Under the pieces are notes generated by a model. It was given only the letters and a program-made list of their open reading frames with translations. It made no database searches and was not told the DNA's origin. The position numbers were made by a program, and so were the translations under genes. A stretch of DNA of 64,000 bases from Candidatus Danuiimicrobium aquiferis. Lineage in GTDB: Bacteria; Omnitrophota; Omnitrophia; Omnitrophales; Danuiimicrobiaceae. Of this stretch, positions 10,170 to 62,968 are shown piece by piece. Numbering within the stretch: the first letter of the stretch is position 1; every line of letters begins with the position of its first letter. Location of the stretch: the NCBI GenBank assembly GCA_001804285.1, contig MHFR01000037.1, positions 85,952 to 149,951 of the forward strand. The letters are read 5' to 3'.

Positions 10170-10243
10170 TTGTTAGTTCCGAGTTTAAACTTCAAAGTTT
10201 CGAGTTTGAAGTTTATAGAAGCGGTTTCATAAGCTCAAATTAG

Positions 10244-10438
10244 TGTCATTCCCGCGAAAGCGGGAATCCACAAATAGTGGTTTCCCCCCGGGCAAGCCCG
10301 GGGCACCTTCCAACATCTGGCCTCGCTGGGAATTTTTTCGTTCCCTGCTCGGCTCGCCCTTCGGGCGCCATCCCCCCCGGACAAGTCCGGGGAGCCCAAA
10401 GCGGCGTATGGATCCCCGCTTCCGCGGGGATGACAGCC
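10244..10438. repeat. cluster of family A palindromic repeats plus GC-rich hairpins
   Basis: tgtcattcccgcgaaagcgggaatcc at 10244-10270; the ccccgggcaagcccgggg hairpin; ggatccccgcttccgcggggatgacag at 10412-10438. This explains the overlapping spurious ORFs 10243..10704(+) and 10246..10452(-). Confidence 0.8.
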
Positions 10439-10494
10439 CTTATAAAAACCACTTCTCTTTTCCGGTTTACAGTCCTTCGCCATCATTTGCACCG

Positions 10495-10547
10495 AAAAAG
10501 GGGACAGGCAATCGCTCCAAGGGACCCATATGCCTGTCCCCTTTTTC
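10495..10547 (-). terminator. bidirectional rho-independent terminator (repeat family D hairpin) after pilS
   Basis: aaaaag-gggacaggca-[20 nt loop]-tgcctgtccc-ctttttc. An A-run lies upstream and a T-run downstream, so it could terminate on both strands. The same element occurs inside rimO (21642-21697), and a half-copy lies at 12001-12030. Confidence 0.55.
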
Positions 10548-10548
10548 T

Positions 10549-11787: not shown

Positions 11788-11868
11788 GCATACTTTCCTT
11801 TACTATTCAAAAAAAGGGACTGGCATGAATGGCGCTGATTTAACAACTTTTTCAGCAAATCCCTACCG

Positions 11869-11968
11869 CTGGATCCCCGCTTTCGCGGGGATGACACTTC
11901 AGACAAACTATTTAGCCTACTGAACTTCCATTCCTTTGCTTGTCATTCCCGCGGAAGCGGGAATCCAG
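11869..11968. repeat. family A palindromic repeats (two inverted copies)
   Basis: ggatccccgctttcgcggggatgacac ... tgtcattcccgcggaagcgggaatcc. Confidence 0.8.
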
Positions 11969-12030
11969 AAAAAACGCTGGATTTCCCTTAAGTCAATGCC
12001 ATTCGTGCCTGTCCCCTTTTTGTAATCATA

Positions 12031-13254
12031 TCACTTAAGAGCTGATGTTAACGTGAGAATCGGCAAAAACATCGCGATCACAATCGCGCCGATCACAATT
12101 CCCAAAAATGCAATGACGAGAGGTTCAATCATTGCCGTCAACCCCGTCACAGCCGTGTCCACCTGAACATCGTAAAAATCCGCAATTTTGGTCAGCATCT
12201 TATCGAGTTCACCGGTTTCTTCGCCAACTCCCACCATGCGAACTACCATCGGCGGAAAAATCTTCTTTCTTGCCAGAGGGCCCGAGATCGTTTCCCCTTC
12301 TTTAATGGAATTTGCCACTTCGCCGATTAAAATTTCGATCAGCCGGTTTCCGGCTGTTTTGCCGACAATTTCCAAAGATCCTAAAATCGGAACGCCGCTT
12401 TTGAGTAATGTCGACAAGGTCCTCGAAAATTTACTGACTGCCACCTTCAGAAAAAGCGGCCCGAAAATCGGCATTTTAAGTAAGCTTGAATCAAACCACA
12501 GCCGTCCTTTTTTGGTATTGATAAACCGAAGAACCAAGAAAATCAACACAACCAATCCAATTGCGATCAAAATAAAATTCCCTCTTAGGAAATCGCTGAT
12601 TGCGAGCAGAATTTTGGTCGGAGCCGGAAGCGGTGCATTCAGGCTTGTAAAAATTCCCGCAAACTTAGGAACGACAAACGTCATCATTCCCATCGTTATA
12701 ATGCCCGCCATGCTCGCAACCACAGACGGATAAACCAACGCCGATTTAATTTTCTTTTGCAGGGCTGCTGACTTTTCAATATAAGTGGCAAGCCGGTCCA
12801 GGATTTCCTCCAAACTACCGCTCGATTCTCCCGCCTTCACCATGCTGATAAATAATTCACTAAAAACCTTGCGATGTTTTTCAAGCGCTTCTGATAAACT
12901 TTTCCCGCTTTCGACATCATCATGCAGCCGGATGATGACGTCTTGCATCGTCACATTCTCAGCCTGTTCGGCTAATATATTTAAAGACTGAACAAGCGGC
13001 ACACCGGCTTCGACCATGGTCGCAAGCTGCCGTGACAAAATCACCAAATCATCCTGCTTGATTTTCTTACGCTGCTTGCCTTTCCCGGGCGATTTCGAAA
13101 AAAGCTGTATTCTCGGCTTGGCTTCGGTAATGCGAACAATTAAATACCCCTGCTGCCGGAGCGCCGCAACAAGGGTATTCACATCCGTCGACTCTTGGGA
13201 GCCTGAAATACTTTTACCTTCCTGATCTTTGACTAAATATTCAAATGTTGGCAT
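12031..13254 (-). CDS. pilC: type II secretion system F family / type IV pilus platform protein PilC
   Basis: 407 aa with two GspF repeats and three TM segments. It lies immediately downstream of the PilB-type ATPases. Confidence 0.85.
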   Translation of the reverse strand: MPTFEYLVKDQEGKSISGSQESTDVNTLVAALRQQGYLIVRITEAKPRIQLFSKSPGKGKQRKKIKQDDLVILSRQLATMVEAGVPLVQSLNILAEQAENVTMQDVIIRLHDDVESGKSLSEALEKHRKVFSELFISMVKAGESSGSLEEILDRLATYIEKSAALQKKIKSALVYPSVVASMAGIITMGMMTFVVPKFAGIFTSLNAPLPAPTKILLAISDFLRGNFILIAIGLVVLIFLVLRFINTKKGRLWFDSSLLKMPIFGPLFLKVAVSKFSRTLSTLLKSGVPILGSLEIVGKTAGNRLIEILIGEVANSIKEGETISGPLARKKIFPPMVVRMVGVGEETGELDKMLTKIADFYDVQVDTAVTGLTAMIEPLVIAFLGIVIGAIVIAMFLPILTLTSALK

Positions 13255-13409
13255 AGGTATCCTTTTGAATTAAAAAAACATAATGACCAAACCCCAATGA
13301 CGCAAAGTATCACAAAATGACAAATTCCAATTTGAAATTTATCTTTTTGGGATTTCCTTGGTCATTGACACTTGGACATTGGAATTTCATCTTCATCCTG
13401 TTTTTGTTA

Positions 13410-15104
13410 TCAATCCTCAATCGCTGCCACTCTCAGAACCTCTTCAAGCGTCGTTTCACCGTTCTCGAAAGACATCAGCGCATCTTCAAATAACGACCTC
13501 ATTCCCTTTTTTCTTGCGACTTGTTCTATTTCCTGAGTTGAGCGATTCTCAATCACCATCTGCTGGATTTCTTCATCCATCACTAAAATTTCCATCGTGG
13601 CAATACGCCCCCGGTATCCAGTATTTCGGCAATAATTGCATCCTTCTCCACGTTTGGCTTGAATTTTCCGGACCCAATCGTGTTTTCCCCCTACCCGTGC
13701 TAATACATCGGCTGAAATAGAATAAGGCTTTCGGCACCGGGGACAAGACCTTCGCATCAGCCGCTGAGCCGTCACGGCAATCAGTGAAGAAGCAATCAAA
13801 AACGGCTCGACATCCATATCCGCAAGCCGTGTCATCGCACCACAGGCGTTATTCGTGTGAAGCGTACTGAATACCAAATGACCGGTCAACGCCGACTTAA
13901 CGGCAATATCGGCCGTTTCGCCGTCACGGATTTCTCCTACGAGAATCACGTCCGGACTTTGCCTTAATAAGGATCGGAGACCGTTCGCAAAAGTTAAGCC
14001 AATATCCGCATTTGCCTGTGTCTGAGTGATTCCTTGGATCTGATATTCCACAGGGTCTTCAATCGTCATAATATTCCGGTCCTTGGTATTAAACTGATTC
14101 AGGATTGAGTACAACGTCGTCGATTTTCCGCTTCCCGTTGGCCCTGTGACCAAAACCATTCCATAGGGCCGTTTGATCGCTTCCTGAAGTTTTTGAACGC
14201 TCGATGAGGTAAACCCAAGGACCTCGAGCCCCAGCTTAACGTTTGACTTGTCCAATATTCTGAGAACCACTTTCTCTCCGTGATAGGTTGGAAGAATAGA
14301 TACGCGAAAATCAATTTCACTATGCTCAAACCGGACCTTGAAGCGGCCGTCCTGAGGAAGCCGTTTTTCCGTAATATCCAAATCGGAAACAATTTTAATG
14401 CGCGTTAAAATAGCATTATACATTTCCCGCGGTGGGGAATGCGCTTCCCTGAGCGCACCGTCAATGCGATATCGGATCCGCAGCCGCGTTTCATAAGGCT
14501 CAAAATGAATATCCGACGCACGGTTTGAAATAGCATCTTGTAAAATTAAATTGACCATCCGTATGACCGGCGCTTCATCCGCGGAAAATTTTTCTTCGGA
14601 AGACACCCCCATTTGCACGCCAACCACTTCGACGGAATCCGCGTCAAAATCCTCGACCAAATCCTCAAATTTCACATCCATCGCGTAGTAATTCTCAATC
14701 GCGGCCTGAATATCTTTAGACGTTGCGATGACCGGCCGAACATGACATTGGGTGATCTCTTTCACATCATCAATAGCATAAATATCCAGGGGATCGCTCA
14801 TCGCAATGGTGACCGTATTCCCAATTTTCGAAATAGGAATCAATTCGTAGCGCTCTGCAATTTTTTTCGGAATGATCTCCACATATCTGGGATCGATTTT
14901 ATACGCATTCAGATTAAGAATCGGAATCTTAAGCTCTGTGCTTAACAACACGCATAAATCCTTTTCCGGGATAATGCCTTCGTCCACCAGAATGTGAAGT
15001 AATTTTTTCCCGCTGGATTGCTGCATTTCATGCAGACGGTCCAGATCCTCTTTCGAAATCATCTTATTTTTCTTAATAATATTAATCAGGCTATCTGTTT
15101 TCAT
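13410..15104 (-). CDS. pilB: type IV pilus assembly / T2SS ATPase, GspE/PilB family
   Basis: 564 aa. N-terminal GSPII_E_N domain; Walker A GPTGSGKSTT; Asp and His boxes; C-terminal tetracysteine CPRC...CNYC. Confidence 0.85.
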   Translation of the reverse strand: MKTDSLINIIKKNKMISKEDLDRLHEMQQSSGKKLLHILVDEGIIPEKDLCVLLSTELKIPILNLNAYKIDPRYVEIIPKKIAERYELIPISKIGNTVTIAMSDPLDIYAIDDVKEITQCHVRPVIATSKDIQAAIENYYAMDVKFEDLVEDFDADSVEVVGVQMGVSSEEKFSADEAPVIRMVNLILQDAISNRASDIHFEPYETRLRIRYRIDGALREAHSPPREMYNAILTRIKIVSDLDITEKRLPQDGRFKVRFEHSEIDFRVSILPTYHGEKVVLRILDKSNVKLGLEVLGFTSSSVQKLQEAIKRPYGMVLVTGPTGSGKSTTLYSILNQFNTKDRNIMTIEDPVEYQIQGITQTQANADIGLTFANGLRSLLRQSPDVILVGEIRDGETADIAVKSALTGHLVFSTLHTNNACGAMTRLADMDVEPFLIASSLIAVTAQRLMRRSCPRCRKPYSISADVLARVGGKHDWVRKIQAKRGEGCNYCRNTGYRGRIATMEILVMDEEIQQMVIENRSTQEIEQVARKKGMRSLFEDALMSFENGETTLEEVLRVAAIED

Positions 15105-15107
15105 GGT

Positions 15108-16847
15108 TTACCGTTCCAGTATTTCAATTTCTTGATCGCCGGCCGTCACACGCACCACTTCATCAAGCGACGTCTCGCCCGCCAACACTCGTTGGATTCC
15201 GCTCTCACGCAATGTCGTCATTCCTTTTCTACGGGCCGCTTTCTTAATATCCTCGGCGTTAGCACTTTTAAGGATTAATTCTTTGATTTCCGGCGTCAAC
15301 ACAAGGATCTCGGTAATCACCGTGCGGCCCGCGAAACCAAGCGACCGGCATTTTGCGCATCCTTCCGGATGATAAAGGGTCGGATGTTCTTTGATGTTAA
15401 TTTTAAAACGCTTCGCCGTTTCCTCATCCAGCGGCTTCGGAACCTTACACACAGGACACAACCTTCGAATCAGCCGCTGCGCCGTCACCATCAATATGGA
15501 TGACGTGATTAAAAATGGTTCAACCCCCATATTGATAATTCGAATAATGGAGCTCGTCGCATCGTTCGTATGAAGCGTGCTTAAAACGAGGTGCCCGGTC
15601 AGCGCCGCTTTGATCGCAATATCAATCGTCGTTTGGTCACGGATTTCTCCGATCAAAATAATGTCAGGGTCCTGACGTAAAATAGATCTGAGCGCGCCGG
15701 GGAATGTGAGCCCGATTTGTTCGCGGATATTTACTTGATTCGCGCCATCCATTTGATATTCAACCGGATCTTCAACCGTGGTAATATTTTTCTCTATCGA
15801 ATCAATGTGCTTTAAAACCGAATAAAGAGTGGTGGTCTTACCGCTGCCCGTCGGCCCGGTCACCAGAATCATCCCGTTCGGCTTAAACGCGCACGATTTA
15901 AGTTCTCCAAGCTCCTTCGCCGAAAAACCCAGTTTATCCAAATTGTGTGCCTGAGATTTTTTATCCAAAATACGAAGACACACTTTTTCACCAAAACAGG
16001 TCGGCAGAATCGAAACGCGAACATCCACTTCGTGGTTCTGTATCTTGACTTTGAAACGCCCATCCTGAGGAACCCGCCGCTCGGCAATATCCAATTGGCT
16101 CATCACTTTAAATCTTGAGACAAGAGCCGAGCCAATCGCCTTGGGTGGTGATTTAAGTTCTTCAAGAATCCCGTCTACGCGGCACCGGACTCTCAGGGAT
16201 GTTTCCCAAGGTTCGATAAAAAGGTCGCTCGCCTTTCGTTTAATCGCGTCGACAAGCAACGCATTCGCCACTTTAATGACCGGGGTTTCCTGAGCTTGTC
16301 TTAAGAGGTCGAGTGTTTTAACTTCTTCTTCCTGGTTTTTTGTTTCCTGGACAATTCGGATGAGATCCTCAATCGTTTCTTCCTGGTGAGGAAGAATGTC
16401 TACATCACTTGCGGGATAATACTTTTGAATGGCTTTCTGAATTTCACCGGCCAAGGCCACAACCGGTCGGATTCGCATATTAGTAATCGCTTTCAAATCA
16501 TCAATAATGGCAAGATCGTTCGGGATTTCCATGGCAACGGTTAAAGAATTATCATAGACCGAAATTGGCATGACTTTGTGTTTATTCACAAACGTCGGAG
16601 GGATCATCTGGATAACTTCTTCCGCAATTTTAAACAGATTCGGATTAACGGGCGGACACTTAAATTCATCGCTCAAAAACAGCATCGCGGCCTGAGCATC
16701 GATGAGTTTCAAATCAATCGCAATTTCGATTTGACTTTTCTTGGCCTTGTTTTTTTCATCCAGAACCAAAGGAAGATCTTCTTGCCGGATCAACTTCTTG
16801 GTGACCAGCTTTTTCAGTATCCCATCATTCCAATTATTCTCATCCAT
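15108..16847 (-). CDS. second GspE/PilB-family secretion ATPase (paralogue)
   Basis: 579 aa. N-terminal GSPII_E_N domain; Walker A GPTGSGKTTT; C-terminal CPVC...CAKC. Confidence 0.85.
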   Translation of the reverse strand: MDENNWNDGILKKLVTKKLIRQEDLPLVLDEKNKAKKSQIEIAIDLKLIDAQAAMLFLSDEFKCPPVNPNLFKIAEEVIQMIPPTFVNKHKVMPISVYDNSLTVAMEIPNDLAIIDDLKAITNMRIRPVVALAGEIQKAIQKYYPASDVDILPHQEETIEDLIRIVQETKNQEEEVKTLDLLRQAQETPVIKVANALLVDAIKRKASDLFIEPWETSLRVRCRVDGILEELKSPPKAIGSALVSRFKVMSQLDIAERRVPQDGRFKVKIQNHEVDVRVSILPTCFGEKVCLRILDKKSQAHNLDKLGFSAKELGELKSCAFKPNGMILVTGPTGSGKTTTLYSVLKHIDSIEKNITTVEDPVEYQMDGANQVNIREQIGLTFPGALRSILRQDPDIILIGEIRDQTTIDIAIKAALTGHLVLSTLHTNDATSSIIRIINMGVEPFLITSSILMVTAQRLIRRLCPVCKVPKPLDEETAKRFKINIKEHPTLYHPEGCAKCRSLGFAGRTVITEILVLTPEIKELILKSANAEDIKKAARRKGMTTLRESGIQRVLAGETSLDEVVRVTAGDQEIEILER

Positions 16848-35133: not shown

Positions 35134-38100
35134 TTAAGCTGCGGCTTCTATTAAACGCTGAATCTCCGGCAAAGATTCCAAGTATTGCCAAAATTCAACA
35201 TACGCAATTGACGGATAGCCGTTTTGCTCGCCCAACGAGAAGCCATGCGCCTGAGTCGTGAAATATTGCTTCAGCAAAAGGCCGTATTCATCCGCGCCGA
35301 TCTTAATTCCCTTCATATACGCCGATAGATGATTTAACGCTAAAATTAAAGAAAAAGCAGTGGTCACTTTAGAAAGATGATCAAGCTCCTGGAATCGCTC
35401 CCCATCACCGATTAAAACCAGCAGATATTTAAACTGGCTTGCCTGTTCAGCGGACCCAACCAAAATCGCGGCCCCGTGCTGGCGCCCGTCCATCATGGCA
35501 TTTTCCGCAAATTCCGAATCCGTGAACTTGATCACCCGGTAAAGTTGTGCTCTGGAAATCCCGCTTTCAATCACGGTCTCTGCAAGGCTACTTGCCTTCT
35601 TCCCTGAAATCGTAAGCCATGGTTTTCCGTCATCACGCTGAAATCGAATCAAAATTCTTGCAAAATCCGGAAATAGAGTTTTATCGGAAAATATGGGATC
35701 CTCCGATGAAAGATGCACAAATCCTTCGGGGGTGAATAGTAATGCTTCCGTCATCCTGAGCGCCAGCGAAGGATCCACGCCCGTCGATTCAGAAGAATTC
35801 GTCGCAAGCCCACTCAACCGATTCGCAAATATTTCTGTCACCGGCTCCGGTGTTTCCGCAAACGCTTCAGGAATCAGCGATCGAAGAATTTGATCCTTCC
35901 CGAATCGGCTCACCGCCTCCGGTGCCACAGTCCTTTCTGCCACTTCTTTCGCCACCGCGAGGACGCTTTCGAGAGAAACACCACGAATGTTGTCATTGCG
36001 AGGAGTCCCGCCAAAAGCGGGACGACGCGGCAATCCATACTCGGGGATTGCTTCGCCTTCGGCTCGCAATGACACCTCTTGTTGGCGTGCACGATACCCT
36101 TTTTCGCCCCCAATTTTTTCTTTTTTACTTTCCGCTTTGCGACCCTCCGAGCGGGCTTGCATCAGAAGATCATGTACTTGAGGCTGTGCCGTGATAAGGG
36201 CTGAGTTTACGGTTGGTTTATTGTCAACAATCTTCAGGCGGTTAAAATCCACAGGGAAGAAATCACGGGAATTTTCGTCCGTCACCTTTGCTCCAAGCGC
36301 AAATCCGACATGTGCGCCCCCAACCACATCCCAAAGGTTCGAGCCGCCATCCAAGTAGGCATCATAAACCCCAAAAGCGACCAACAGCGCGCTGATGATC
36401 CCAGATCCAGGACTTGGCTCTGCGTTGATCTTTTTCTTGGTCACCAATTGATAATGCCGCGCAGAAAACTTTTCAATGCCCGGAATAAATATTGCATTTA
36501 CTTCTGAAAGCGTCGTAGCCTTCGAAGCCGGAGGCATAAATTTCTGGCCGTTTAGAAATACACCTCCCGAATGGACTTCCACCATAACCGACTGGGCCCC
36601 ATTCATTTCGAATTCGGGCGCATAAATAACGGTATAAACCGGATTGCCCTTATCTAAAAGCGACAGGGTGAAACAATAATTTTTCCAACCGTTGATATAA
36701 GGCCGTGTTCCGTCAAGCGGATCAAGCACCCAAACAAACCTCGTTTTTTTTGCGCGTTCCAGAACCCCCATATCCCGCTCAAACATTTCTTCGCCAATCA
36801 CCAGAGAATCCGGAAGCAATGCAGACACCTCTTTCCTCACCATCTCTTCAATCACCGGATCCACGCCTATTGCAATATCCGAACCATCAAGTTTCCTCTG
36901 TGCTTCGATTTTACTGGCTTTCACCCGAAGCATAATTTTCCCGGCTTCTAACGCAAGGCGCTTCATCGTATGAAGGACTTCCCATTCCTCAAATGCCTTG
37001 GCAAAATTTTGAACACGCGGCTGGAATGGATCGGAACGTTTCGTCGCGATAGTGTCTATAAAATCTGCCGCAATTAGTAGCGTCAGGACGTCTTTCGCGT
37101 CAACATCCGGGTTGATTTGATCGACAAATTTTTGGAATACATCAAGCGACGGGACACCCTTAGACACACCCTCAACGAAATATAACGCGCCATGAAGCCG
37201 GACAGCTTCTATTAATGTTTCCCGATTCGCAAGCCCTTCGGCCAATAACGGATTACTTCTTAACAGATTTGTCGACGCGGCCTCATGATCCGGGTAAAGC
37301 ATTAACGTCCTGCCTTCTTCAATAATTACTTTCGCAGGAACAGTTATTTTGCCGATATCGTGCAGTAAAATAAATTCTTCAAAAAACCGACGGTTCGCAG
37401 GATTTGATAAAACGGCCCGGAATCTTTCGGGTATTTCACCGTACGACGAAGCATAATTCAGAACATCTACCATGGCCCGGAGATGATCCCGCAGTAGCGG
37501 CCCTTCCTGATGAACTTGGAGCGGATAATTTGGAATATTGAACCGGTCATGAAATTCCAAAGGAAGCCTCTCTCGAATCAGTGCCTCAATCGAATCCGCC
37601 CTCAATTCCGATCTCATAAAATCATACTGCGTATTCTCACCGCCAAATGTAGAAAGCCATTCATGTTCAAGGAGTAAATGCATATCGTTAACCGTATGCC
37701 AGTACGCGCGCGAAGGTTCTGCCACATTCAGATTCCAATCATCTTCAAATCCTTGGGCCGTTTTACGCACAAGCGCCAGCACTTTTGCCCGTTCTATTTC
37801 CCGAATCGCAGGATCGTCCGAATACGGAAGCTCCATAATCCGTCCGATTGCCATGTGCCCGAATTTCGGCCGTGATGTGATTCTATTTTCGCCGATGAGC
37901 CGCTTCGCCTCGCTATTTAATTGTTCCATAAAAGGATGAAAACGGTCTTCGGGGTCGGCAAAAAATCCGACAAACCCACCGTCGGCCGTTACTCCATAAC
38001 CAAGTTGAAATAAACGAAACACTTTTGTGCTTTCCGTATTCTGCTTGACCATGCCGCGAATCGTTTGCTTTTCATCTTCGTTGAGCGGAACAAATGTTTT

Positions 38101-41100
38101 CCGGTCTTTCCTCGAGAACAACTGCTTGTGCTCCTGAAAAACGCCCATGCTCAAATGCACATTATTCTCGCCAACTTCCCAATAACGGATTTGATCTTCA
38201 CGCCCCGGAAAAATCTTTTTCAGTTCATTTAAATAACGGTGAAACGACTGATGAGCTGCCGTAACAAATGGTAATCCTGGATCCAAACGGTGAATAACTG
38301 CAAACGCACCCGGTTCAAAATATTGCTGATGATAATTTCCGTCCTCCCCCTTCTTAAGCCCGCGCAGAATAATTCGATACCCCTTCCCGGGATATCGACG
38401 CATGGTACGTAATCCCTTCTGATACTTCTCATGATAAAGCCGTACCGGATCCGGCGTTTGCCTCACCTCAGCCCGCGCCAAAGGCGGCGAGAAAACGTGC
38501 GCATTCCGGCCCAGCAGTTCCTTCGCAATATCGCGAGTTTTATAAAATAAATTTTTTCCCGAAACACCAAGATCCGTTCGGGTTCTTGCTGCCGTTTCGG
38601 CACGGACAGGAATTTGAGCAATTGAATTTTCAATATCGACCTGTGCCGTTGCTATTCTGAAATTGGGGAGCAAACCTATCGCCATTTCGGCAGTTCTTGT
38701 AAAACTGTCCAGCCGGCCAAAATCGGTGACTGAATCAAAGTTGGTTTCTGTTAACTTGAAAAACGCATATTCTCCAAGTTGAGAAAGATATTGTTCCGCT
38801 CGATTTTGAATTTTCCCGGATTCTTTCAGTAATGTTGTCCGGTTCAATTCAATCAATACCGCCAAAGTTCTTGCAGTCAAAAGAGGGTCGAAATCAGCAG
38901 TTCCTGCGTTCCCGCTTGCTTCCGTTAAAAATTTCTCCGCCCGTTGATCAAAAAAATGAATTAATTGCTTATAAGCCGCCATCACTTCCGCGGGAATGAT
39001 GACGGGAATGGTATGCTTTCCTTTGTATGCAATATTTAAACGATAAATTTCTCCAATCGCAATCCCGGCAAGTTTAATTCGGTCGCTATCAGTCAAATCA
39101 CGACTATTGAAATCATGACGGTACGGCGCGTATCCGATGACTTCTTCAAGTTCAGGCCACACAGCCTGCTTGATCAGAGTTGCAGCCGCACGTTTCTGAA
39201 GCCATGGATTTTCAATGACAAGAACACGTTTTGGATAAAATTTTTCGGCATCGAGAATTTCCTTCGCATTTAGAACATTCTCGCCGGTGTTGGTAGATTT
39301 ATTTTCCACCGAATCAACTGAAACTCCGTTTTCTTCGAGTCGCGCTTTATAAAATTCAGATTCGGCAATCCGCTCGCCGTCCGGCGTATAATAATATCCG
39401 CCGAAATGCGCGCCATACATTCCGACCGTCATCACCGGCAAATCAGGCTGGTTCGTCTTCAATTTCTTAATCAGGATAGCTGTTTCTTCCGGGACCCGTT
39501 CGTCTTCCGTGCCAAGCACCATCACGAAATCAAAATCCTTTTGAATCAATTCTTCTTCATTAAGCGGAACGGAACCACGGTTCGCAGTTTTCACATCATA
39601 AAATTCCCTCGCCGCAAGAAAATTCGTGATCGGCTGGGTGAGCCGGTTCAACAGAAGTCTATCGGAATAAGACAGCCCTACCGACCTTGTCTCCGCGCGG
39701 ATTTTTGATTCTTTCGGAATCGTGATTGACCAATGCGTTGTGTAGCGCGGCTTCCCGATCAGTTGGCGAATCCATAGCTCCACCGCAACGAAATGATTGA
39801 TTAATATTCCCCGTATCAGAAAATTTCCCAAAGACCGTTTGAGCTCAAACAAGGTTCCTTCCCAATCCCGCAGCGGGTGGAAACGCTTCATGTACCATGC
39901 AACATAAAACACCCCATAATGAGCCCAGGCTGTTTTCTTTTTTCCCGGACTGAGCAAACTTTGCACCCAGCGGTCTCCCAACTCCCACCGGTATTCTTGT
40001 TTTAAATAGCCCACAAATGTCTCTGCAACAGAAAATGAAATCACCGCATCCGGATTTGCGAGAAGCCGCCAGAAATAATTTCTACCCTTTGTTTTCGCCT
40101 GCGGATCAGCAAATACGAATTTCAGGAAATAATCTTCGTTAATAGGAAGCGAAGGCAACGGCGGCAAAGAAAATAAATAGGCGAACATGCTCGTTCCGCG
40201 GACGCTATTCGGGTTAGAACCTTGTCCGACCGGTAAAACTCTTCTCGTCAACGTATGGCCCGGATGAATCTTATATGATGATCCAATCAACATCGGCACG
40301 CCGTTTTCTCGTGATTTCGTCAAAAGAAAATCGATATTGGACTCAATATTCCCCGGCGAGAATTCGATATCATCATCCATCATTCCGATAATCGAAGCGT
40401 TGATCGATTGCGCGTATTCCCGGATAGCATTTACCGCATTGGATTTTCCGGACAATTTCTCGCCCGGAAGCCGCCCGCCGAGCGGCATATGCATCACCGT
40501 AATCGGAACTTCAGGCGTTGAATATTGGCGCTGAAACTTGCGGACTTCTTCGAGATACGCTTTTTGATCCAAGCCGTTGATATTAATGACCAATCTCACC
40601 GGCCAATTCCGGTAAGGCCCGTCTTCCCGCTTCATCCGCGCAAGATCAGCTATGATCTTTTTAAAATGAAGAATCCGCTCGGCCGGATCACCGTGAATAT
40701 TCGCCGTCGGAACGCCAATCACAATCGATTGATGCTCCGCATGAATAAGTTCCTTTACTTTCCCCCGCAAATCTTGCGATTCGATATATTTATCCACATC
40801 GTCATAAATCGGCTCAAAATATTCTTTATATGCCCGCTGCTTCGGCGAATTCTCACCCGGCTCATAAACTCGCATCTCCACCGTCCGGGCATCTTCAGGC
40901 CCCGGCACAAAAAATCCGCCGTTCATATTTACACGATAGTCTAAAATGGGGACAGGTTCTGGTTCCATTGGCGTAGAACCTGTCCCCATTTGGGATGTAA
41001 TGTTACGCACTTCAGATCGAGGCAATGCAACTTCTCCATTTTGATATGGAACTCGAATCCCTTTTTCAATAGACGGTTTACCTGCAAGCTCTGGGGGAAA

Positions 41101-44100
41101 CGAATCTGAAATTTTTTCACGCGAGGTTTGCGGAATGACTATCAATGCGGAATGATTTTCTCTGGCGCGGAAATTCTCTGAGCTTTCTTCGGAAACGGGT
41201 ACGCCATTTTCATATTTCATGACGTCCACACTGTTGGCGAGCAAGAAAAGTTCCCGGATGGGATCCCCGCGTGTTTTTGTGACTTCCAACACCATCTTTT
41301 GAACTTCTTCGATCGTATAACCAATTTTTTTACGTTTATTCCCCGTTAAATTAATAGCCACTACGCGGCCGCTTTCAGTAATCCCGATTAAATTGTGCGG
41401 ATATTTTGATTTGATTAATTTGACTTGAAGTTTTTTCTGATGCGCCCCGCCGACAATCCGGTATTCCCCTTCGGCAAGTGGCCCGTCGCCAACTTTGGGC
41501 TTATAGCCTCGCGTCTTCAATGCTTTTTCTTCAATATCCGCGATCGAATATCGATTCGGCTCCTGATTTAAATATGGCGCTAAATCAAATTCCGCTTCGC
41601 CGTCATTCGCCAACACTTTTTTCAGCAAACGCCGGTCCACCGGCCGGCCGGGCACCGGCAAATCCACAAAAAATTCTTGAAATCCGATGGCTTGCCCGTA
41701 TTGCGGCTTACCCTGTTCGTTATAAGTAATAAACTGCGGAAGCACATATAAGTGGTAAAGATCATCAAATTGATTTGCGATATCCTGAACCGGCGTTGCC
41801 GCCCCATGATGAATGAGCCTCTGACCGAAAAAGGCAGTTTTAACCTCAGCTGCTCTGTTTTCTGTAGAGTCACCAATCAAAACCTTGACCTGCCCGGAGC
41901 CGTCAACTTTTACGAACCTTACATCTTCCGATGTAATTGCTCCGGTATTCCACGCAACCATCATGCTATATATCCTCTCAAAGACCGGCTCATCCTTCCG
42001 GTGATAAACTTGCTGACGCGCCCCGTCATAAATCACAAACCAGTCATTATGCAAATAATTGCCGTAAGAATAAACGGTCACCGCGCCATATTTCCCGCCA
42101 ACCTGATCCTCAACCGGCTTCAGCGCACTTTCTACATCAAACACCGTCGGCATTTCATTGGAATTCAATATGCGCCCGCCCAACATTCTCGACCCTCGCC
42201 CCCGGTTCCATACAAATTGTTCCGCCGCTTCTTCATTAAAAACCAGGGATAAATCAATCACTCGCGGACTGTAAAAATCGAATACAGCCGGATGTTCAGT
42301 CAATGTTTCCCGCACTTCAGAACGGGTTTGGCTGGCTGGCTGTGATTCGAACTGACCTTGCTCGTCAAACAACTCGAGAAGCGCGTCATTAAAAGCCTTC
42401 AGGTTTTTGGGAAGGCCGGACAAAACAGTCGGGAGATCAGCCGGGAAATCAGACCGGCGTTTTCTCAGCCCTTCGATCATCCCACTAAAAAGCTCCCGTA
42501 ACTTTGCCCTGTTTTCATCGTTTTTCGAAAATCCACCAAGCAAATCGGCGGCCGTTTTCCAATAAATCTCCGGAATTGCAGAAAGGCCGTTTTGACCGTT
42601 ATAAATCGGCCGGACATCTCCGGAGCGAGTAAAAATAATGAGCGCGAACATCTCGCGCAACATATTAAGTTTAACTGTTTTTCTTCCAAGCCCGTAAATG
42701 TCGTGGTCCAGTGCATAACTAACCCCTTCGATTTTTCCATCTCTTATTTCATCGGCATAAGAAACAGCAAATGTTCCCTTCGTCCGAAATTGCTGGACGG
42801 GGTCGTGCATGTACGCAACAACCAATGGATCGTTATTACTTAAACCAAGCTCCTGGTGAACTTGCTTTAATATCGGTTTAGTCTTCTCAAAATATTCTGT
42901 AATGATTGACGTTTCGGTTTCAAGAATAATATCTTTTTCATCAATCGGAACCGGACGCGGGTTTCCTTTTTGGTCAACCCTGTTACGCGCCATATGCAGA
43001 ATAATCTCTTTGATAATTTCTGCCTCCCTCCGTTTAAGCGCCATATCGAGTTTGCCAGCCTTCCTCAGAGTTTCAAGCCGTTCGATCTGGCTTTCATGCG
43101 TAATCACCTCATCATCCGAAATATGAACCGGAATTCTTTCCAAAACCGCATTTCGAATCAAAGACAACGTCCCTTTGCCCAAACCGCCTGAAATGAGAAT
43201 CTTTGAAATTTTATGAGCATTATATAATTCCACCGCTTCCTGAAAATTATCCAGGAAATCATTGCCGCAGATGAGAAGTACATGGGCTTTTAACTCCTGG
43301 CGTTTTTTGTCCCGGCTGTTCAGCAACTCTTTAAGTTTTAGCAAACTCAGTGTATCTCGCAGAAATACAATTCTATCCCGAAGACGCTTCTCTTCCCTTT
43401 GGTAATATCTTTTCACCCGGTCGACATGCGCCATGGATTCTTGCCGGCGTAAAATTTCAAAAACCTGCTCAAGCTCTTTTTCATACTGTGCGACGGCTTC
43501 TTCAGGTACCGATTTCCAACCCTCGCTCAGTCCGTCTTCAGCTTTCTTAAACAACCTGTTTCGATTGAATGTTTCCCCGACATATGATGGGTCCGAGTCT
43601 TTAAACAAGGCAACTACCTCATCCGTGCCAATGTCAAAAATTCGTTGAGGGACCCCCAAAATTTTTAAATAATTCTGGGCCGCCTCAAGCATCATACGAG
43701 CGACTCTTCGCTGAAGAGGCGCAATCACATGATGGCCGTCTTCACGAAGGAGAAACTCCTGATGAGACAAAGACATGGTTTCTTTAAGCTGCGGATATTC
43801 GGTGAGGGCTCTTCTCGCCGTCTTCATTTTCGCGTTCTGGTTCTCGATTACCTTCTTGATTTTTTCAAGCGCCAGTCCAAGGCCCGCATCCACTTCTCGT
43901 GCGGAAACCATCCATGGTTTTCGAGTCCCTGCGCGTGCAACCCTGACGAATCCCCGCATCAATAAATTCAAGTTCTCGTCTTTTGTTAACGATTGAAGGC
44001 TTAATTCCTCTTCCTTCGTTTTCTCAAGATGTTTCATGCACAAGGCCGCAAGAAATTCTTCCGTCACGCTTTTGCCTTCTAAAATACGGCTTCTGATGTC

Positions 44101-47100
44101 CTCCAGATAAAAAAGGGTATCTGAAGGGTCATCGAGATGTTCGCTCGTCTTTTTATATTTCGTAGACCACTTTTCAACGATGTCATAAATCTGCGGATAG
44201 TGTTCCCTCAATTTCTCCGCCAGTTCGGCAGGATCTTTATGGCGCTCGAACATTTCACTTACCGCCGGACTGCTCCACACCCGCTCAATCAAAGCATAAA
44301 ATTCCTTATCTTTCTGCCGCGAAAGCTTGAGAATAAGCCCCTTCGGAATATCTTTTCTGTTTTCGTCGATACTGAACTCGGCATGAAGACCGACCGCCGC
44401 TTCATCTTTCATAATTTCCCGGAAATTTCTGTCAATATATCTTGCCTGATCGAAAGCAAAAATATGATTCACCGTCACATCAAGCCAGAAACCAATATGC
44501 ATCCAGACAAACGCATCGATGATTCCGTCAACCATCGTCTCAACATTGTCCTTCGTAATCATACCGTTCATTCCGGATATCACCTCACCAAACGTCTTGA
44601 GCCCGGTCCACCGCGCATTAAAAAGCTCTTGCAAATCGTGTGCTCTAAGATTCCGCACATTTTTAACGAAATAGAAAATGCTGTGTGGATCGTTCCGGGT
44701 TATCCGTTGATATAAATACATCCGTACCGTGTCAGGTGGTTCATCGGGATTGTGAGTTTTATATGTGGAACTGCTTTTAAAAACGCGTTCCTGGGTTTCT
44801 AATTTCCACGGCGTTCGTCCGACAAAGAATCTCTCGAAAACATCCGTCAGACGGTCCCATGCCTGCCAATAGTAGTCGAGCTCAAACCACCGGTAAACAC
44901 TCGATCGCTTGCGCAAATGTCCGTCTTCCGGAAAGTCTTGATAGACTTCGGAGCGACGTATATGCATCATGCTCCAACGTTCAAAAATTTCATGGGGTTC
45001 CATTTCCCTGAGAACCTCTTCCGGAGTCATTTTTTCATCGGATCTGTAAATCCCGACCGTCCGCCTTTCTTCCACAATCGGGCCCTTGCCGAGATAAATC
45101 GTCCGTCTTCCGGAATCAAACGTCACCATTTGACCGTCATACGCAGCAAGCTTTTCAAAAGCATCCGTTGCCCCCACCAGACACGGAATCTGCAGCGGGA
45201 GTGAATTCTGCGCGGCATGCGATGTGCTGCCCCCGTCAGTTGTGATAACACCGGCCAGCTTCGCAAACACATCGTTAAACTCATTGTTGGTGTGATGCGC
45301 GACTAAAATGACGCCCGGTCTTACTTGGGCCGCCAGATGCTTATCCTGAGTTTCGCTGCCGCCTTTCTGCCCTTTCAATATCTGAAGCTGCGCATACACG
45401 GCACCGTGAGTCGCCGCAGTTGCATTAGAATCCAGAACATGTCTTCTCATGGACGGAACTTGGCTTTCATCAACTGTCCGCACGACGAAAACGGCTTGAT
45501 TTTCCTCACGTTTGGCTTCCGAAATGATTTTCGCGCGCGCCTGAACAATAAAAATTTCTCCATTCTCATCCACCGCAAATTCTATATCGATATTGTTTGC
45601 TAATCCTCGAGCGCGGTAATGCCTGCAAATCAACTTGGTCAAGCGCGCCACCTCAAGAATTTCGGCATCCAACAAGCTCGGAAGGTCAGCTTCTTCATCC
45701 GAAAGGTCCACCGTTTGAATATCACCGCCCGGTTTCGTAGTGACCTTTTGCTTCTTCCTCTGGATTTTCTTTTCTAAAATCGCATCCGCCATCGGACCAA
45801 CCTTCCATTTATCAACGGGAATCTTCCCGTCCACAATCCCTTCGCCGATTCCATGAACCGCATCGATTTTGATAATCGGCCGGTTAATCGAATCATCGGG
45901 ATCCACCGAAAATGCCACGCCGGAGCTGCGGGGCTCGATAAACTTTTGAAGCAGAACCGCCATCCCTGCCTTGGCGACACTGAGGCCAGCCCTCCTCCGG
46001 ATGGTCACAAATCCATCGTCAAAGAGACTGGCCCAAACCACTTTAATTGATTTCAACGTTTGATTAACCGATAGTTGGTACAATTTGGTTTTCGCCTGTC
46101 CGGCAGCCGCAAAATTTTTGAGGTCTTCAACCGTCGCGGAACTGCGCACGGCGATTTTTCCGCCCAATCGCTTAAACTCTCTGGCAATTTGATTTCTAAG
46201 TGGTTTCGGGAACTCCAATTTTCCGATCCGGTCCCTGATCTGTTGGCAAAGCATGCGGATTTCGTCTTCATCCTCCGTTTTTTCAAGACGTTCGACTAAC
46301 TCTTTGATCACCGGATCGCCGAAAACCATCCGCTCAAAAGCGTGCGTCGTCAACACAGACGAATCAGGCACTTGAAGCACCGGCACTTTCCCAGAATTCA
46401 TCAGTTGACGAAGAATATGAGTGTTTGCGCCTTTTCCGCCCGCAACCTCAACCGACGCGGCGGCCTCGTCATCGACATTTAGGATATCAGGAAATATCTC
46501 TTCCCAAATTGCTGAATCACTGACATACGGACCTGTGAGATCTAAAGCAAACGCCAATGGATTCGCCTGAAATTCGCTTTCAATCTCCTGCCTGGTTTTA
46601 AAAACCATCTCATCGGAATCAATCGTTTTAAAAATATTCGAGCCACCATCAACCAACTGTGCTTCCGCATCCCGCCGATCGCGCTCTGCCTGCTCCATTT
46701 TTTTCTTTAAGAAGGCTGCATCTTCTCCCGTTAACTGGTAGACAAAAAGCCTTTCTTCGTTCTTATCAAAAACCGGATAGATTCCGGGGATATTGGTTTC
46801 CCGTCTGATCTGACCGGCGATTTCCCGAATTTTTTCTCGCACATTTTTCCCATCAACCGAAAGCACACATAACGATTTTTTTCTGGCGTCCCAATCCATC
46901 AAAACCCCATCTGCCCGGTATTGATCTTGATGCGCCGTTTGGTATGCGACAAGTTTTTTTTCTTCTTTCTCGTTCAACGCATAAAAATCGTAACTCGCCA
47001 GCCATCCGGAACGCACTTTCCCAGAATCAATTTTATGTAATTTTTCAAACGGGATTCTCAGTCCGGTCTCATTTTCAACCGCAGCCGCAACCATCGCCCG

Positions 47101-50100
47101 AAGATCAAAAACAGGATGAATCCACGGAATCCCTACCTTTTTTCTGATTTCTTCAGCAGCTGCCTTCACTTGGTCCGCAGTCACCTTCCCATCAATCGAA
47201 ACAAGGTGTAATGATCTTTTTTCCTGATCCCATACCAGATCGATTCCATCAGCATGAAACGCAGCCTTATTCGTTTCATAATATTCATGAAGCCTCTGCT
47301 CTTCCGCATCGGATAAAGTATAAAAATAATAGACGGGATCCCCCGGAGCATTTTCGCCCAAGCGCACATCTTTGAGTCGCGCGAGCGGAATCTTGGCGCC
47401 CGTCTCTTTCTCAATAGCATCAGCGGCTGCGGTTAATACAGTTTCTTTATTCACTTTAGCGTTGGCAGATACCGTCAGTTTTCCCGCAAAAAGCCTTTTA
47501 TACGGTCCGCGTTTTTGGAAGAGAATTTTCTTGCCGGATTGATCAATCAAGAAGATTTGCGCAGACGGAACCCGTCGCGGTGATTTAGATGGTCCGCGAG
47601 TCCCACCGACAAATTTATTCATTACCTGGGCCATATACAATAGAGACAAGAATGGGTCATCGGAGTCAACCCCCACAGACAATACGGAACGGATATCTTT
47701 CAAAGCCTCATCAATTAACTTTCTTGAGTGGCTACGCGCCGCCTCATCCCATGGCTTTTCTTGCGAAAAGATCTCTCTAACCTCCATTATTTTTCTTACC
47801 ACCTCTTCACGATTGACTCGGGCAGCCGCAACAGATGATTTCAATTTATCCACCACGGCTTTATCCGCCAATAGCGGCTCAAGAAGGTCATCCGTCAATT
47901 TCACATTCCATTGCTGGACGCCGTCCTTAAAAACATCTTCTTTTATTACATTCTCTCCTCTCGCAGCTTGCAAAAGCTCTTCCAGCGTAAGTTCATAAAT
48001 TGCCCAGGTTTCTCCATTTCCTGCATGGCGCGTTTGTTCCCGTTCAATCCAGCGTTTAAATTTCTCGCGAGTCATCGAACGTTTTTTTTCTTCCAGCCAC
48101 CGGCCATATTCAAGGGCCTTTTCAACTTCTTTCGAAGTCGCAAAATACATATAATTGGTAATTTTTTCTCGATTTGGCGGATCCGTTCGGTCCGAAGAAT
48201 ATCCGTTTTCTGCGCCAATCAGTTTCCATGTCCCTTCAAGGACTCCGTCCTTACTCATACCGGCCTCTTCGGCCAATTCATCAATCGCAGTCCGATAAAT
48301 CGTCTCTCCGGCCTTTACATGCCCGCCAAAGATCGTCACATCTAACGGTTTGACTTTATTGTGAACTCGACGCTGAACAAGAATCGTTCCTTTGGGCGTA
48401 AAGACAATCGCATTCGCGCTATGGTGCAATAGCCGGTATTCGTGAGCGATCCTCGCGTCAATCACACCGATGGTTTTAATTTCACCGGCAGCCCCTTCGG
48501 CGATAATATTCAGATCTTCACCGCTCAGTGTAATCTTCCCATCTTGAACTCTTTTGAGAATGCTTTCGATCATATCCGGCGTAATTCCCGATCCGGGAAA
48601 TCCGGCCAAATGTTCGAGCTTGTACTTTAATGTTGCTGACGGTGGAACGAGTAAAGACGGCCAATCGTATAAGCCTCTGTGATGCAATCCGCTGTTATAA
48701 AACAGATGCGCCAAAATCATCCACGTCGTTGCGCTCACACCAACCATGAAGGAAAGTGCAGGGCCAATCGAAAACGTCGCTGGAAAAAAAACGAAGTAAG
48801 GCAGATATAAAAACAGGCCCAGAACAAACAATCGTCCCCACATCGAAACACGTTCATTGAAGCGATAAAACTTTTTAAATACCGGAGGTCCGGCTTTGTG
48901 AGGCATATAAACACCGTTCCAATGAAGAACAGCATAAAACACATTGCTGACCAACCCGGCTATCACACTCGAAACCAAAATGCCATGAGCACCGGCTAAA
49001 TAAAAAACCAATAACGTATAAAGGCCTGTCACGGCTACCGTTCGCGCAAATGGCGCAACTTTCAGAGCCGTACCTTCATCTACCTTAAACTTCTCCCAAA
49101 CTGTCCGTACAGGTGAAACATTCAAAGTACTCTTGCGCGTTTCTGCCAAAAACTCCTCGGCACTGCTGCCATTATCGCGCGCTTCGGCCCTTGCAGCGGC
49201 ATTCTTTTCCCTCTGCCGCAACCGCAAGGACTCCTGTACGCTTCGATTCCCCAAAACGGGGACAGGTTCTGGTTTTATTGTCTTAGAACCTGTCCCCATT
49301 TTGGGTGCAAGGTTGCGCGCTTCGGCACGTTCTGATGTTTCAGAAGAAACATCAGAAGTACTGCCTTCGGCTGCCCTCGCTCGCTGCATTCCTGGACCTC
49401 GCAAGAGCACAGGAGCATAAGGCACAGGCGCGGAAGCTTTCATCTCTACTTGTGTCCCTGTGCGCGTGTGTTCTTGTGTACTCGTCTGGCGCATGTTGAA
49501 AAACATGCTGTCATGCAATTTAAGCGCCGGGCCGTCAGGCTGTGCAGAAGTCTTGAGTGTCGCCTGCATGTCTTGGATTCCCGTTTGAATATCATCCGCT
49601 AAATACTGTGCTTCAGCGCGGCCAATCTTTGCAGCTGTTTCGTGCATCGGATTAATGATTTGCGCTGGTGCAACGTTTGACGCGGGAGAAAGAAAAACAG
49701 GTTTTAACGTCATCCGGTTCACATAAAGTTGACTGTCCTGAATTTCATTGATCTTCGGCATAATCGACAAATACGAAAAACCTTTTTCCTTCGCAATCGC
49801 TTCGATTCCTTCTTGATGGAAACCGCCGGTAACGAGAACGGCCTTGTCCTGCTTGGTTTGTTTTAACGTACTCAAAACGTTTTCGAAGATAACTTGTTCT
49901 CGTTCATTGGCGGTTTGATAGAATTGAAGGCAGCGGCGGAAGAGGTTTTGTACAGGCCCCTCAATGCCCCTCTTTGTCATTCCCGAAAGCTGTTCTCGGG
50001 AATCTCCTAACAATGGATTCCCGCTAAAAACATGCGGGAATGACAAACGCCCTTGATTGTTTCGTTGTTCTGATTTTACGAGGAATGACACAGTCCCTTG

Positions 50101-62968: not shown

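Follow-up and report, generated by a model that had tools for sequence, protein, structure and literature searches.

The window analysed here, the whole stretch of 64,000 nucleotides at positions 85,952 to 149,951 of contig MHFR01000037.1 from Candidatus Danuiimicrobium aquiferis (assembly GCA_001804285.1, phylum Omnitrophota), carries two giant open reading frames (ORFs), ORF1 and ORF2, which occupy its right-hand third on the minus strand. Coordinates are collected in the table below, and all positions are those of the window. The length given for ORF1 is counted from its first TTG, and the ATG at 51658-51660 (Met16) is the likely start. Both proteins open with the same domain of about 450 residues, referred to here as the head, and continue into long bodies with no similarity to one another or to those of 151 relatives, one weak match excepted. 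As judged from its sequence, the head carries the full catalytic set of active enzymes of the TIKI/erythromycin-esterase type, with alike spacing. On balance, the head is probably an active His/Glu hydrolase of the TIKI/Ere superfamily positioned at the outer face of the cytoplasmic membrane.

A preliminary reading of the DNA made without database searches (the sequence-only reading) had proposed that a shared N-terminal domain defines a paralogous family of giant proteins, possibly with a TraB/GumN/ChaN/Tiki fold. The shared domain is real. The peptides quoted for it are present, and the pairwise alignment suggested as a check, a BLASTP comparison of the first 700 amino acids (aa) of each ORF, yielded three segments that are colinear between the two N-termini: aa 3-272 of ORF1 with 5-275 of ORF2 (26% identity, E 9e-17), aa 396-551 with 324-488 (25% identity, E 8e-7) and aa 571-659 with 431-527 (40% identity, E 1e-16). 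A separate BLASTP run on the whole proteins found no similarity between ORF1 and ORF2 outside the head. In addition, a six-frame scan of the window with a hidden Markov model (HMM) of the family detected exactly two copies of the head, both on the minus strand, at 360 bits in ORF1 and 384 bits in ORF2. The interval first assigned to the domain, 49741-62700, is bounded by the end of the head in ORF1 and the beginning of the head in ORF2 and thus takes in the whole ORF2 body.

Conservation was assessed in 153 aligned heads, some pairs of which are as low as 21-25% identical. In head numbering (the ORF2 residue number minus 60), residues D38, H40, Q46, E68, G69, G120, E122, Y127, F403, R410, G435, G436, H438 and Y471 are conserved in 100% of them. 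Among 80 loci analysed in genomes, E68, R410, H438, Y127, Y471 and G120 are found in 80/80 and E122 in 79/80; the residues of the QDAH..AQ motif belonged to the genome search pattern and are not independent evidence in these loci. The superfamily set, consisting of an acidic residue, a first His, a Glu at +28, an Arg and a second His in a GxxH motif at +28 from the Arg, is present in both window proteins, as D98, H100, E128, R470 and H498 in ORF2 and as D90, H92, E120, R602 and H630 in ORF1. Both spacings, from the first His to the Glu and from the Arg to the second His, equal 28 in either protein. The same two values hold for EreC, with E47, H50, E78, R261 and H289 (PMC7979712), and RRSP, with E3900, H3902, E3930, R4001 and H4030, has spacings of 28 and 29 (PMC6254334). 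In BcR135, the H85/E113 pair is likewise 28 apart (PMC6254334). Since the core contains the complete TIKI/Ere catalytic set, hydrolase chemistry is most likely. In EreC, the attacking water is held in place by both His residues and the Glu, with R261 stabilizing the transition state (PMC7979712), and RRSP is a metal-independent TIKI endopeptidase for which the catalytic set is essential (PMC6254334). The same residue set can act without a metal, as RRSP and the Ere enzymes demonstrate (PMC6254334; PMC7979712).

Structure prediction gave a model too poor for use when AlphaFold was supplied with three sequences (predicted local distance difference test, pLDDT, 58.9), and a model with pLDDT 85.3 and a predicted TM-score of 0.78 when it was supplied with 25 family members. 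The core of the latter is an alpha/beta fold of five strands (32-38, 64-67, 117-120, 429-435 and 453-458 in head numbering), and a stretch of about 300 residues (124-425), almost wholly helical, is inserted between strand 3 and the Arg-bearing helix. A Foldseek search of this model against 350,542 PDB chains returned no match at E<=0.001. Ranks 1 and 2 are taken by EreC (E 0.15, prob 0.57), rank 5 by the type III effector HopBA1 (prob 0.93), ranks 9 and 14 by BcR135 and rank 32 by ChaN. These are the only alpha/beta folds among the top matches, the rest being long helical proteins that presumably reflect the helical lobe. EreC, HopBA1, BcR135 and ChaN share one fold, that of the TIKI/Ere/ChaN-like superfamily (PMC7979712; PMC6254334), and the ranking obtained with the predicted model is suggestive of membership of the head in it. 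The TM-scores of about 0.2 are attributable to the helical lobe, and the superposition on EreC is poor, with a root-mean-square deviation of 22 A. Within the helical lobe, PF23202 (the paired amphipathic helix, PAH, of ZNF598) is weakly matched in 14/25 heads (best E 3.4e-6), over approximately head residues 200-330, corresponding to aa 260-390 of ORF2 and about 61800-62190 of the window; in the relative P0005 the match falls at aa 264-323, inside the lobe. DUF1722 is weakly matched in 5/25 heads.

Profile comparisons point in the same direction at low scores. The full heads of ORF1 and ORF2 matched no model in Pfam (2025 copy) or NCBIfam (release 20). Core-only sequences were made from 23 heads by deleting the helical lobe, and PF04187 (ChaN) was matched by 8/23 of these cores, always with core residues 109-153 aligned to profile positions 161-204 of 213. 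This segment extends from the Arg helix through GGFH, with the GxxH motif in register, and its best match reached E 0.015 and 15.8 bits against a cut-off of 27.7; no other Pfam family was matched by more than one core. TIGR00261 (traB, NCBIfam) was matched by 2/23 cores, at best with E 0.0049 and below its cut-off, and PF05139 (erythromycin esterase) and PF01963 were matched by no core or full head. An hhalign comparison of the 153-sequence core with a TraB/GumN alignment of eight sequences (Escherichia coli YbaP and plasmid homologues) gave P 0.0045. When the comparison was limited to the C half, P was 0.0018 and Arg fell on Arg and GGFH on GxxH. The HH probability in these comparisons was just 8-15%, and the N half, in local mode, was out of register. 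Across full heads and the 23 cores, no profile match to a member family (PF04187, PF05139 or PF01963/TIGR00261) was significant; the sub-threshold matches count as evidence because they agree in family and in register. Of the fold proposed in the sequence-only reading, the superfamily holds up, given the alpha/beta Foldseek matches, the residue spacing and the hints from the ChaN and TraB models, none of them significant. The choice of closest kin does not, as the two-lobed erythromycin-esterase/BcR135 type is structurally nearer than TraB/GumN. Membership of the head in the superfamily is, on its sequence and predicted model, a well-motivated proposal, and catalytic activity would follow from its residues.

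Each head is preceded by a hydrophobic helix. The helix of ORF2 has K/R residues before it and a small-residue stretch, 'LSAAP', after it, and is predicted to be a Sec-type signal peptide or a type II anchor. A single hydrophobic helix lies ahead of the head in 125/151 relatives with a 19-residue threshold and in 140/151 with a 17-residue window. The mean net charge is +3.8 in the N-flank and -0.6 in the C-flank, the N-flank being the more positive in 144/151 relatives, and a small-x-small motif follows the helix in 145/151. Helix, charge bias and small-x-small motif together are what a Sec signal peptide or type II anchor would show, which predicts an extracytoplasmic position for the head. 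Furthermore, Cys makes up 0.16% of ORF1 and 0.11% of ORF2, compared with 1.16% of 20 other proteins encoded in the window (Fisher p 8e-20), a 7-10-fold depletion; for the bodies of 121 relatives, the median Cys content is 0.34%. Depletion of Cys is typical of proteins exported unfolded. The charge bias and Cys depletion would indicate that the whole giant protein is exported, in agreement with the extracytoplasmic head predicted at the outset.

Three hydrophobic helices in ORF1 and three in ORF2, one of the latter weak, exceed the threshold. A family-wide topology in which the head forms a periplasmic loop flanked by membrane helices on both sides was rejected, as 92/121 long relatives have no further hydrophobic helix. 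No lipobox-like Cys was seen in the approximately 30 N-termini viewed, for which no systematic search was made. In 47/151 relatives (e.g., P0004-P0014), and in neither window protein, the N-terminal helix displays an 'LLQxFxF....FA' pattern with a Gln, an uncommon feature in a simple signal peptide and a hint that the helix takes part in a specific interaction.

Situated next to the signal peptide or anchor, the head would be the first folded part of the protein to emerge on the outer face of the membrane, where a water activated by His and Glu would attack a carbonyl and hydrolysis would follow. As the bodies share nothing, the head probably serves all of the exported proteins alike. Its task at the membrane may be to process a partner or the giant chain itself as it emerges, in the manner of PrgY/TraB, Tiki and RRSP. 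Peptide-bond processing of the chain or of a partner, proposed by analogy with these proteins, is a possible but tentative assignment of its role, with ester hydrolysis as the main alternative. In favor of a peptidase, PrgY/TraB and Tiki, which are secretory or membrane-located, and the RRSP toxin domain are all peptidases; the acidic residue stands at His-2, as in RRSP; each protein has one head, located beside the anchor; a moderately conserved 'LAP'-like motif occurs where conservation ends; and the helical lobe has the weak matches to the PAH model. The 'LAP'-like motif lies about 57-62 residues past GGFH in relatives P0004-P0151, with L and P present in approximately 70%, and appears as 'LLASP' in ORF2 (about aa 555-580) and 'FLSP' in ORF1; family conservation stops at this point. 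The motif may serve as a linker or mark a processing site.

Omnitrophota are abundant, uncultured and very small, and are thought to live on or prey upon other cells. A more specific proposal, and an unlikely one, is that the head is a built-in maturation peptidase of phylum-wide exported enzyme polyproteins. After Sec export, the head would cut the chain in cis or in trans, perhaps near the conserved 'LAP' neck motif about 60 residues past GGFH, and would thereby free cargo resembling the cytoplasmic enzymes that handle sugar phosphates, nucleotide sugars and phosphotransfer. This cargo would go on to work extracellularly or in an attached host or prey cell, with ATP present there. Such a delivery logic would be MARTX-like, would represent an independent invention in the Omnitrophota and would extend to thousands of cargo combinations.

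Several results weigh against the assignment of the head as an exported hydrolase of this superfamily. Even the best Foldseek match is not significant, every match in Pfam and NCBIfam lies below its cut-off, the low HH-suite probability obtained with the TraB/GumN alignment becomes 0.24% against YbaP alone, and profile searches of PDB sequences, with the full head and with the core only, gave nothing relevant. The two-lobed structural relatives, EreC and BcR135, are esterases, a point in favor of an esterase role. In addition, enzymes of cytoplasmic type that depend on ATP or UTP are found in many bodies (phosphoglucomutase/phosphomannomutase, PGM/PMM; UDP-glucose pyrophosphorylase, UDPGP; phosphoglycerate kinase, PGK; ROK kinase; and a phosphoenolpyruvate (PEP)-synthase-like module), and these are ill-suited to export. 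A recent preprint notes the same tension for far longer Omnitrophota proteins (Nielsen and Lui, 2026). The body enzymes might act in a host cell or on wall polymers, or might be retained.

Among the alternatives, the one that survives best is an esterase of the Ere/BcR135 type that would work at the cell surface or on a prey cell. Its substrate would be an ester, whether in a lipid, in an acylated polysaccharide or in a small molecule, and no proteins would be processed. The top of the Foldseek ranking, with EreC followed by BcR135, suits such an enzyme, as do the shared plan of an alpha/beta major lobe and a helical lobe, the 28/28 spacing exactly as in EreC and the carbohydrate-related enzymes in many bodies. 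It is a doubtful candidate, however, given that the erythromycin-esterase Pfam model has no match whatever and the only recurrent weak matches are to ChaN and TraB, that the acidic residue takes the His-2 position of the peptidase RRSP and not the His-3 position of EreC, and that the helical lobe, with its weak paired-amphipathic-helix matches, has roughly double the size of the minor lobe in Ere enzymes. A likeness to TIKI/Ere arising by chance or convergence, in a head that is instead a new fold or a member of another alpha/beta superfamily, would account for the sub-threshold fold and profile scores and for the out-of-register N half in local hhalign, but four independent lines (the Foldseek ranking, two model libraries, the in-register hhalign segment and the identity and spacing of five residues) agree, which renders it improbable.

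The passive export or anchoring head envisaged in the sequence-only reading fits poorly, because every catalytic residue is invariant, a pattern that speaks for an enzyme. Non-catalytic use of the fold for export, anchoring or docking to a secretion machine, as in ChaN and the C1/C2 domains of PMT, would be consistent with a head directly behind a signal peptide or anchor, with unrelated bodies attached to it, with the existence of non-enzymatic superfamily members (PMC7979712; PMC6254334) and with type II secretion system (T2SS)-type ATPase and platform genes in the same window; yet PMT, which lacks endopeptidase activity, has lost the 2His/2Glu set (PMC6254334), and all residues of the set persist in 153 highly diverged heads and in the 80 genome loci, leaving a purely structural role as a remote prospect and the least likely of the readings.

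The exported hydrolase head proposed here belongs to a large family. A word-indexed protein search recovered merely one or two relatives, among them a 548-aa protein, and an exhaustive HMM search was therefore required. An HMMER search across 1.84 billion cluster representatives (clusters at 50% identity) retrieved 9,207 of them at E<=1e-3, of which 5,851 pass E<=1e-30. The best 150 matches are proteins of 510-5568 aa, all with the head at approximately aa 40-530, immediately after a predicted N-terminal signal peptide or anchor. In a genome scan with one genome per species, at least 424 loci with a head were confirmed, 80 of which were analysed. Of these, 60 are titled Omnitrophota or Omnitrophica, including one Candidatus Aadella (an Omnitrophota genus), 19 are third-party metagenome-assembled genomes under the names 'uncultured Planctomycetia' or 'uncultured bacterium', and the remaining one bears the label Deltaproteobacteria. 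In several cases, two to four loci come from the same genome. Almost all confirmed loci thus place the family, as far as seen, in the Omnitrophota, with several copies per genome. The paralogous family of large proteins with unrelated bodies that had been anticipated from this window alone is borne out by these numbers.

Among eight family members looked up, the single named one is a 'hypothetical protein'. Literature searches found no paper connecting Omnitrophota with the Tiki, TraB or Ere families, and term searches of West-Roberts et al. (2023) and of the preprint by Nielsen and Lui (2026) found no description of the head. The most fitting classification is that of a new family, very large and with an architecture of its own, inside a known superfamily. 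Across the 153 heads, a Cys directly follows the first catalytic His (position 41, QDAHC) in 95%. This position is Ala in ORF2 and Gly in ORF1, which places the window heads in divergent subfamilies. The nearest relative of the ORF2 head is P0003, a 537-aa protein (49% identity), that of the ORF1 head is P0083 (35% identity), and each window head ranks the other at about 91-99 of 152. A recent tandem duplication was ruled out, as closer relatives of each are found in other genomes. Since each is closer to heads elsewhere than to the other, the two window heads are old paralogues.

The ORF1 head is approximately 130 residues longer than that of ORF2 because of three in-frame insertions of repeat DNA, of which A and B are absent from ORF2 and from the relative P0001. 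Hairpins in A and B lie at 50548-50582, 50759-50803 and 50832-50853. The tandem units of insertion C are at 50037-50171, and the arms of its palindrome at 49973-50004 and 50016-50047. A repeat unit of 29-32 nucleotides (nt) occurs twice among the insertions, at 50660-50691 in A/B and at 50145-50176 in C. The inserted peptides include 'VIPAQAGIHG', 'VIARSEVTKQS' and 'SFPHVFSGNP'. All three fall within the helical lobe or loops belonging to it, no catalytic residue is disturbed by them, and they look like small mobile or palindromic elements tolerated within coding sequence.

Behind the head, the ORF1 body contains enzyme-like modules (36202-48426) that are not common to ORF2, including a PEP-synthase-like module without the PEP-binding barrel. 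The 3155-residue body of ORF2 (window 51881-61348) has no match in Pfam, NCBIfam or PDB sequences. In the bodies of 18 relatives, phosphoglucomutase/phosphomannomutase occurs in 10/18 and UDP-glucose pyrophosphorylase in 5/18; phosphoglycerate kinase, ROK kinase, CofD and a GT9 glycosyltransferase occur once each. At 65 of the 80 genome loci the ORF of the head runs past the fetched stretch, with at least 970 residues after the head in 42/65, and in 9/80 it ends within 15 residues of the head. In 6/9 of these short-head loci, an open frame of at least 979 residues comes next in another frame. Overlap between this long frame and the gene of a near-standalone head is frequent, and split genes, assembly frameshifts or programmed frameshifting are the suggested explanations. 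Likewise, a long gene follows and overlaps that of the 963-aa relative P0077, and a gene encoding 7098 aa lies ahead of it. From the frames at the 80 loci and the neighborhood of P0077, it follows that a long and variable body is either fused to the head or lies immediately beside it.

On the 3' side of ORF1, the same strand carries nusA, infB, a DHH phosphoesterase gene, truB, ribF, pnp, dut, ftsK and a miaB-like gene. The product of this nusA is identical to a NusA protein from assembly GCA_001804155.1. About 20 kb downstream, also on this strand, the region 8787-16847 contains a T2SSF platform gene and two T2SSE ATPase genes with MshEN domains, along with a pair encoding a sigma-54 response regulator and a histidine kinase. 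The nusA-pnp-ftsK block stands between the T2SS-type genes and the giant genes. The proximity of T2SS and type IV pilus (T4P) genes to Omnitrophota giant genes is on record in published work. Promoter and terminator scans found none in either intergenic region of the two giant genes.

Table. Features of the two giant ORFs and their heads (window coordinates; KD, Kyte-Doolittle)
Feature	Residues (aa)	Window position	Strand	Basis or remark
Giant ORF1	5523 aa from first TTG	35134..51705	minus	ORF list, translation
ORF1 N-terminal hydrophobic helix	20-38	51592..51648	minus	KD 1.86
ORF1 head	~63-668	49702..51519	minus	Family HMM 359.8, E 8e-111; three in-frame insertions
ORF1 QDAH	89-92 (D90, His92)	51430..51441	minus	Family-invariant motif
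ORF1 EGG	120-122 (Glu120)	51340..51348	minus	Spacing; 28 past His92
ORF1 insertions A + B	279-318, 337-396	50518..50871	minus	Repeat/hairpin DNA translated in frame
ORF1 insertion C	507-584	49954..50187	minus	Three tandem 45-nt units and a 32-nt palindrome
ORF1 NERE	600-603 (Arg602)	49897..49908	minus	Sequence position
ORF1 GGFH	627-630 (His630)	49816..49827	minus	Spacing; 28 past Arg602
ORF1 hydrophobic-helix cluster, head-to-body junction	~890-1000	48706..49038	minus	KD peaks aa 898-916, 956-974
ORF1 body, Nudix		48112-48426	minus	Pfam, NCBIfam
ORF1 body, PEP-synthase-type ATP-grasp		45499-46449	minus	Pfam, NCBIfam
ORF1 body, swivel His domain of PEP-synthase type		45112-45321	minus	Pfam, NCBIfam
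ORF1 body, DUF218		39100-39531	minus	Pfam, NCBIfam
ORF1 body, inositol-monophosphatase/CysQ-type domain		36202-36981	minus	Pfam, NCBIfam
Giant ORF2	3695 aa	51881..62968	minus	ORF list
ORF2 N-terminal hydrophobic helix	25-43	62840..62896	minus	KD peak 2.07
ORF2 head	~64-552, folded part ~88-535	61313..62779	minus	Family HMM 383.6, E 5e-118
ORF2 QDAH	97-100 (D98, predicted catalytic His100)	62669..62680	minus	D, H invariant
ORF2 EGT	128-130 (predicted catalytic Glu128)	62579..62587	minus	E, G invariant; His100 +28
ORF2 FGVENA, strand 3	179-184 (second Glu, E182; invariant Gly)	62417..62434	minus	153 heads
ORF2 KKRD	468-471 (Arg470)	61556..61567	minus	R invariant; 28 before His498
ORF2 GGFH (GxxH motif)	495-498 (second predicted catalytic His, His498)	61475..61486	minus	G, G, H invariant
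ORF2 hydrophobic helix 2	1046-1064	59777..59833	minus	KD 2.34

The N-terminal regions of Omnitrophota giant-gene products are described by West-Roberts et al. (2023) as generally without identifiable domains. With the head, thousands of large proteins of this phylum gain a first domain that is common to them, recognizable and probably an enzyme. The family, whose 9,207 clusters merit a model of their own in the domain databases, can be catalogued with the head as a simple marker, and the finding leads to a specific hypothesis on the handling of giant exported multi-enzyme proteins at the membrane. In addition, it sharpens the paradox of cytoplasm-type enzymes on proteins that look exported. 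The giants described by West-Roberts et al. (2023) and Nielsen and Lui (2026) are from the same phylum, membrane-targeted, furnished with mixed enzyme domains and close to T2SS/T4P genes. They differ in size and composition, having more than 10,000 to 30,000 aa, many transmembrane helices and SecA_DEAD domains, compared with 3.7-5.5 thousand aa for ORF1 and ORF2. No SecA_DEAD or dockerin Pfam match was found in either ORF, which, along with their length and their three hydrophobic helices each, sets both apart from the 'Archaeovorin'/dockerin type, defined by more than 30,000 aa, numerous transmembrane helices and SecA_DEAD or dockerin-type domains (West-Roberts et al., 2023).

Among characterized superfamily members, proteins of the TraB/PrgY/GumN group (PF01963, TIGR00261; E. 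coli YbaP and Enterococcus PrgY) have the GxxH, E, R, GxxH pattern in common with the head. PrgY is a membrane-located peptidase thought to act extracellularly on a secreted peptide (PMC7117660). TraB proteins, at approximately 260-400 aa, lack the large helical lobe of the head. The membrane anchor of PrgY is not known to be an N-terminal signal peptide. ChaN (Cofac_haem_bdg, PF04187; PDB 2G5G) is extracytoplasmic, and it is the model whose segment from the Arg to GxxH is matched by the cores; it is a small haem-binding lipoprotein, unlike a head on giant proteins. The Wnt proteases Tiki1/2, of the same superfamily, have a signal peptide, are membrane-tethered and trim a protein in the secretory pathway. 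They are eukaryotic endopeptidases dependent on Co2+/Mn2+, and their anchor is C-terminal.

The best structural matches, EreA-D and BcR135/BcR136 (PDB 6XCQ, 3B55), have the two-lobe plan in common with the head, along with an identical spacing of His, Glu +28, Arg and His +28. Unlike the head, which is predicted to be exported and is fused to giant proteins, these are cytoplasmic, stand-alone enzymes of about 400 aa. The Ere family is defined by a major alpha/beta lobe with a four-helix minor lobe and by the hydrolysis of a macrolactone ester, whereas the helical lobe of the head comprises about 300 aa, and the acidic residue is an E at His-3 in EreC and a D at His-2 in the head.

RRSP, the DUF5 effector domain of Vibrio vulnificus MARTX toxins, offers the parallel of a TIKI-fold hydrolase inside a very large exported multi-domain protein, and it was not among the Foldseek matches of the head model. 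Like the head, it has the 2His/2Glu set, an acidic residue at His-2, a Glu at +28 and an Arg, which is essential in RRSP; D98/H100 of ORF2 correspond to E3900/H3902. RRSP is metal-independent and has an appended helical lobe that is required for its activity. It is an internal effector that is delivered to host cells and cleaves Ras and Rap1, whereas the head stands at the N-terminus, once per protein, in front of thousands of different bodies.

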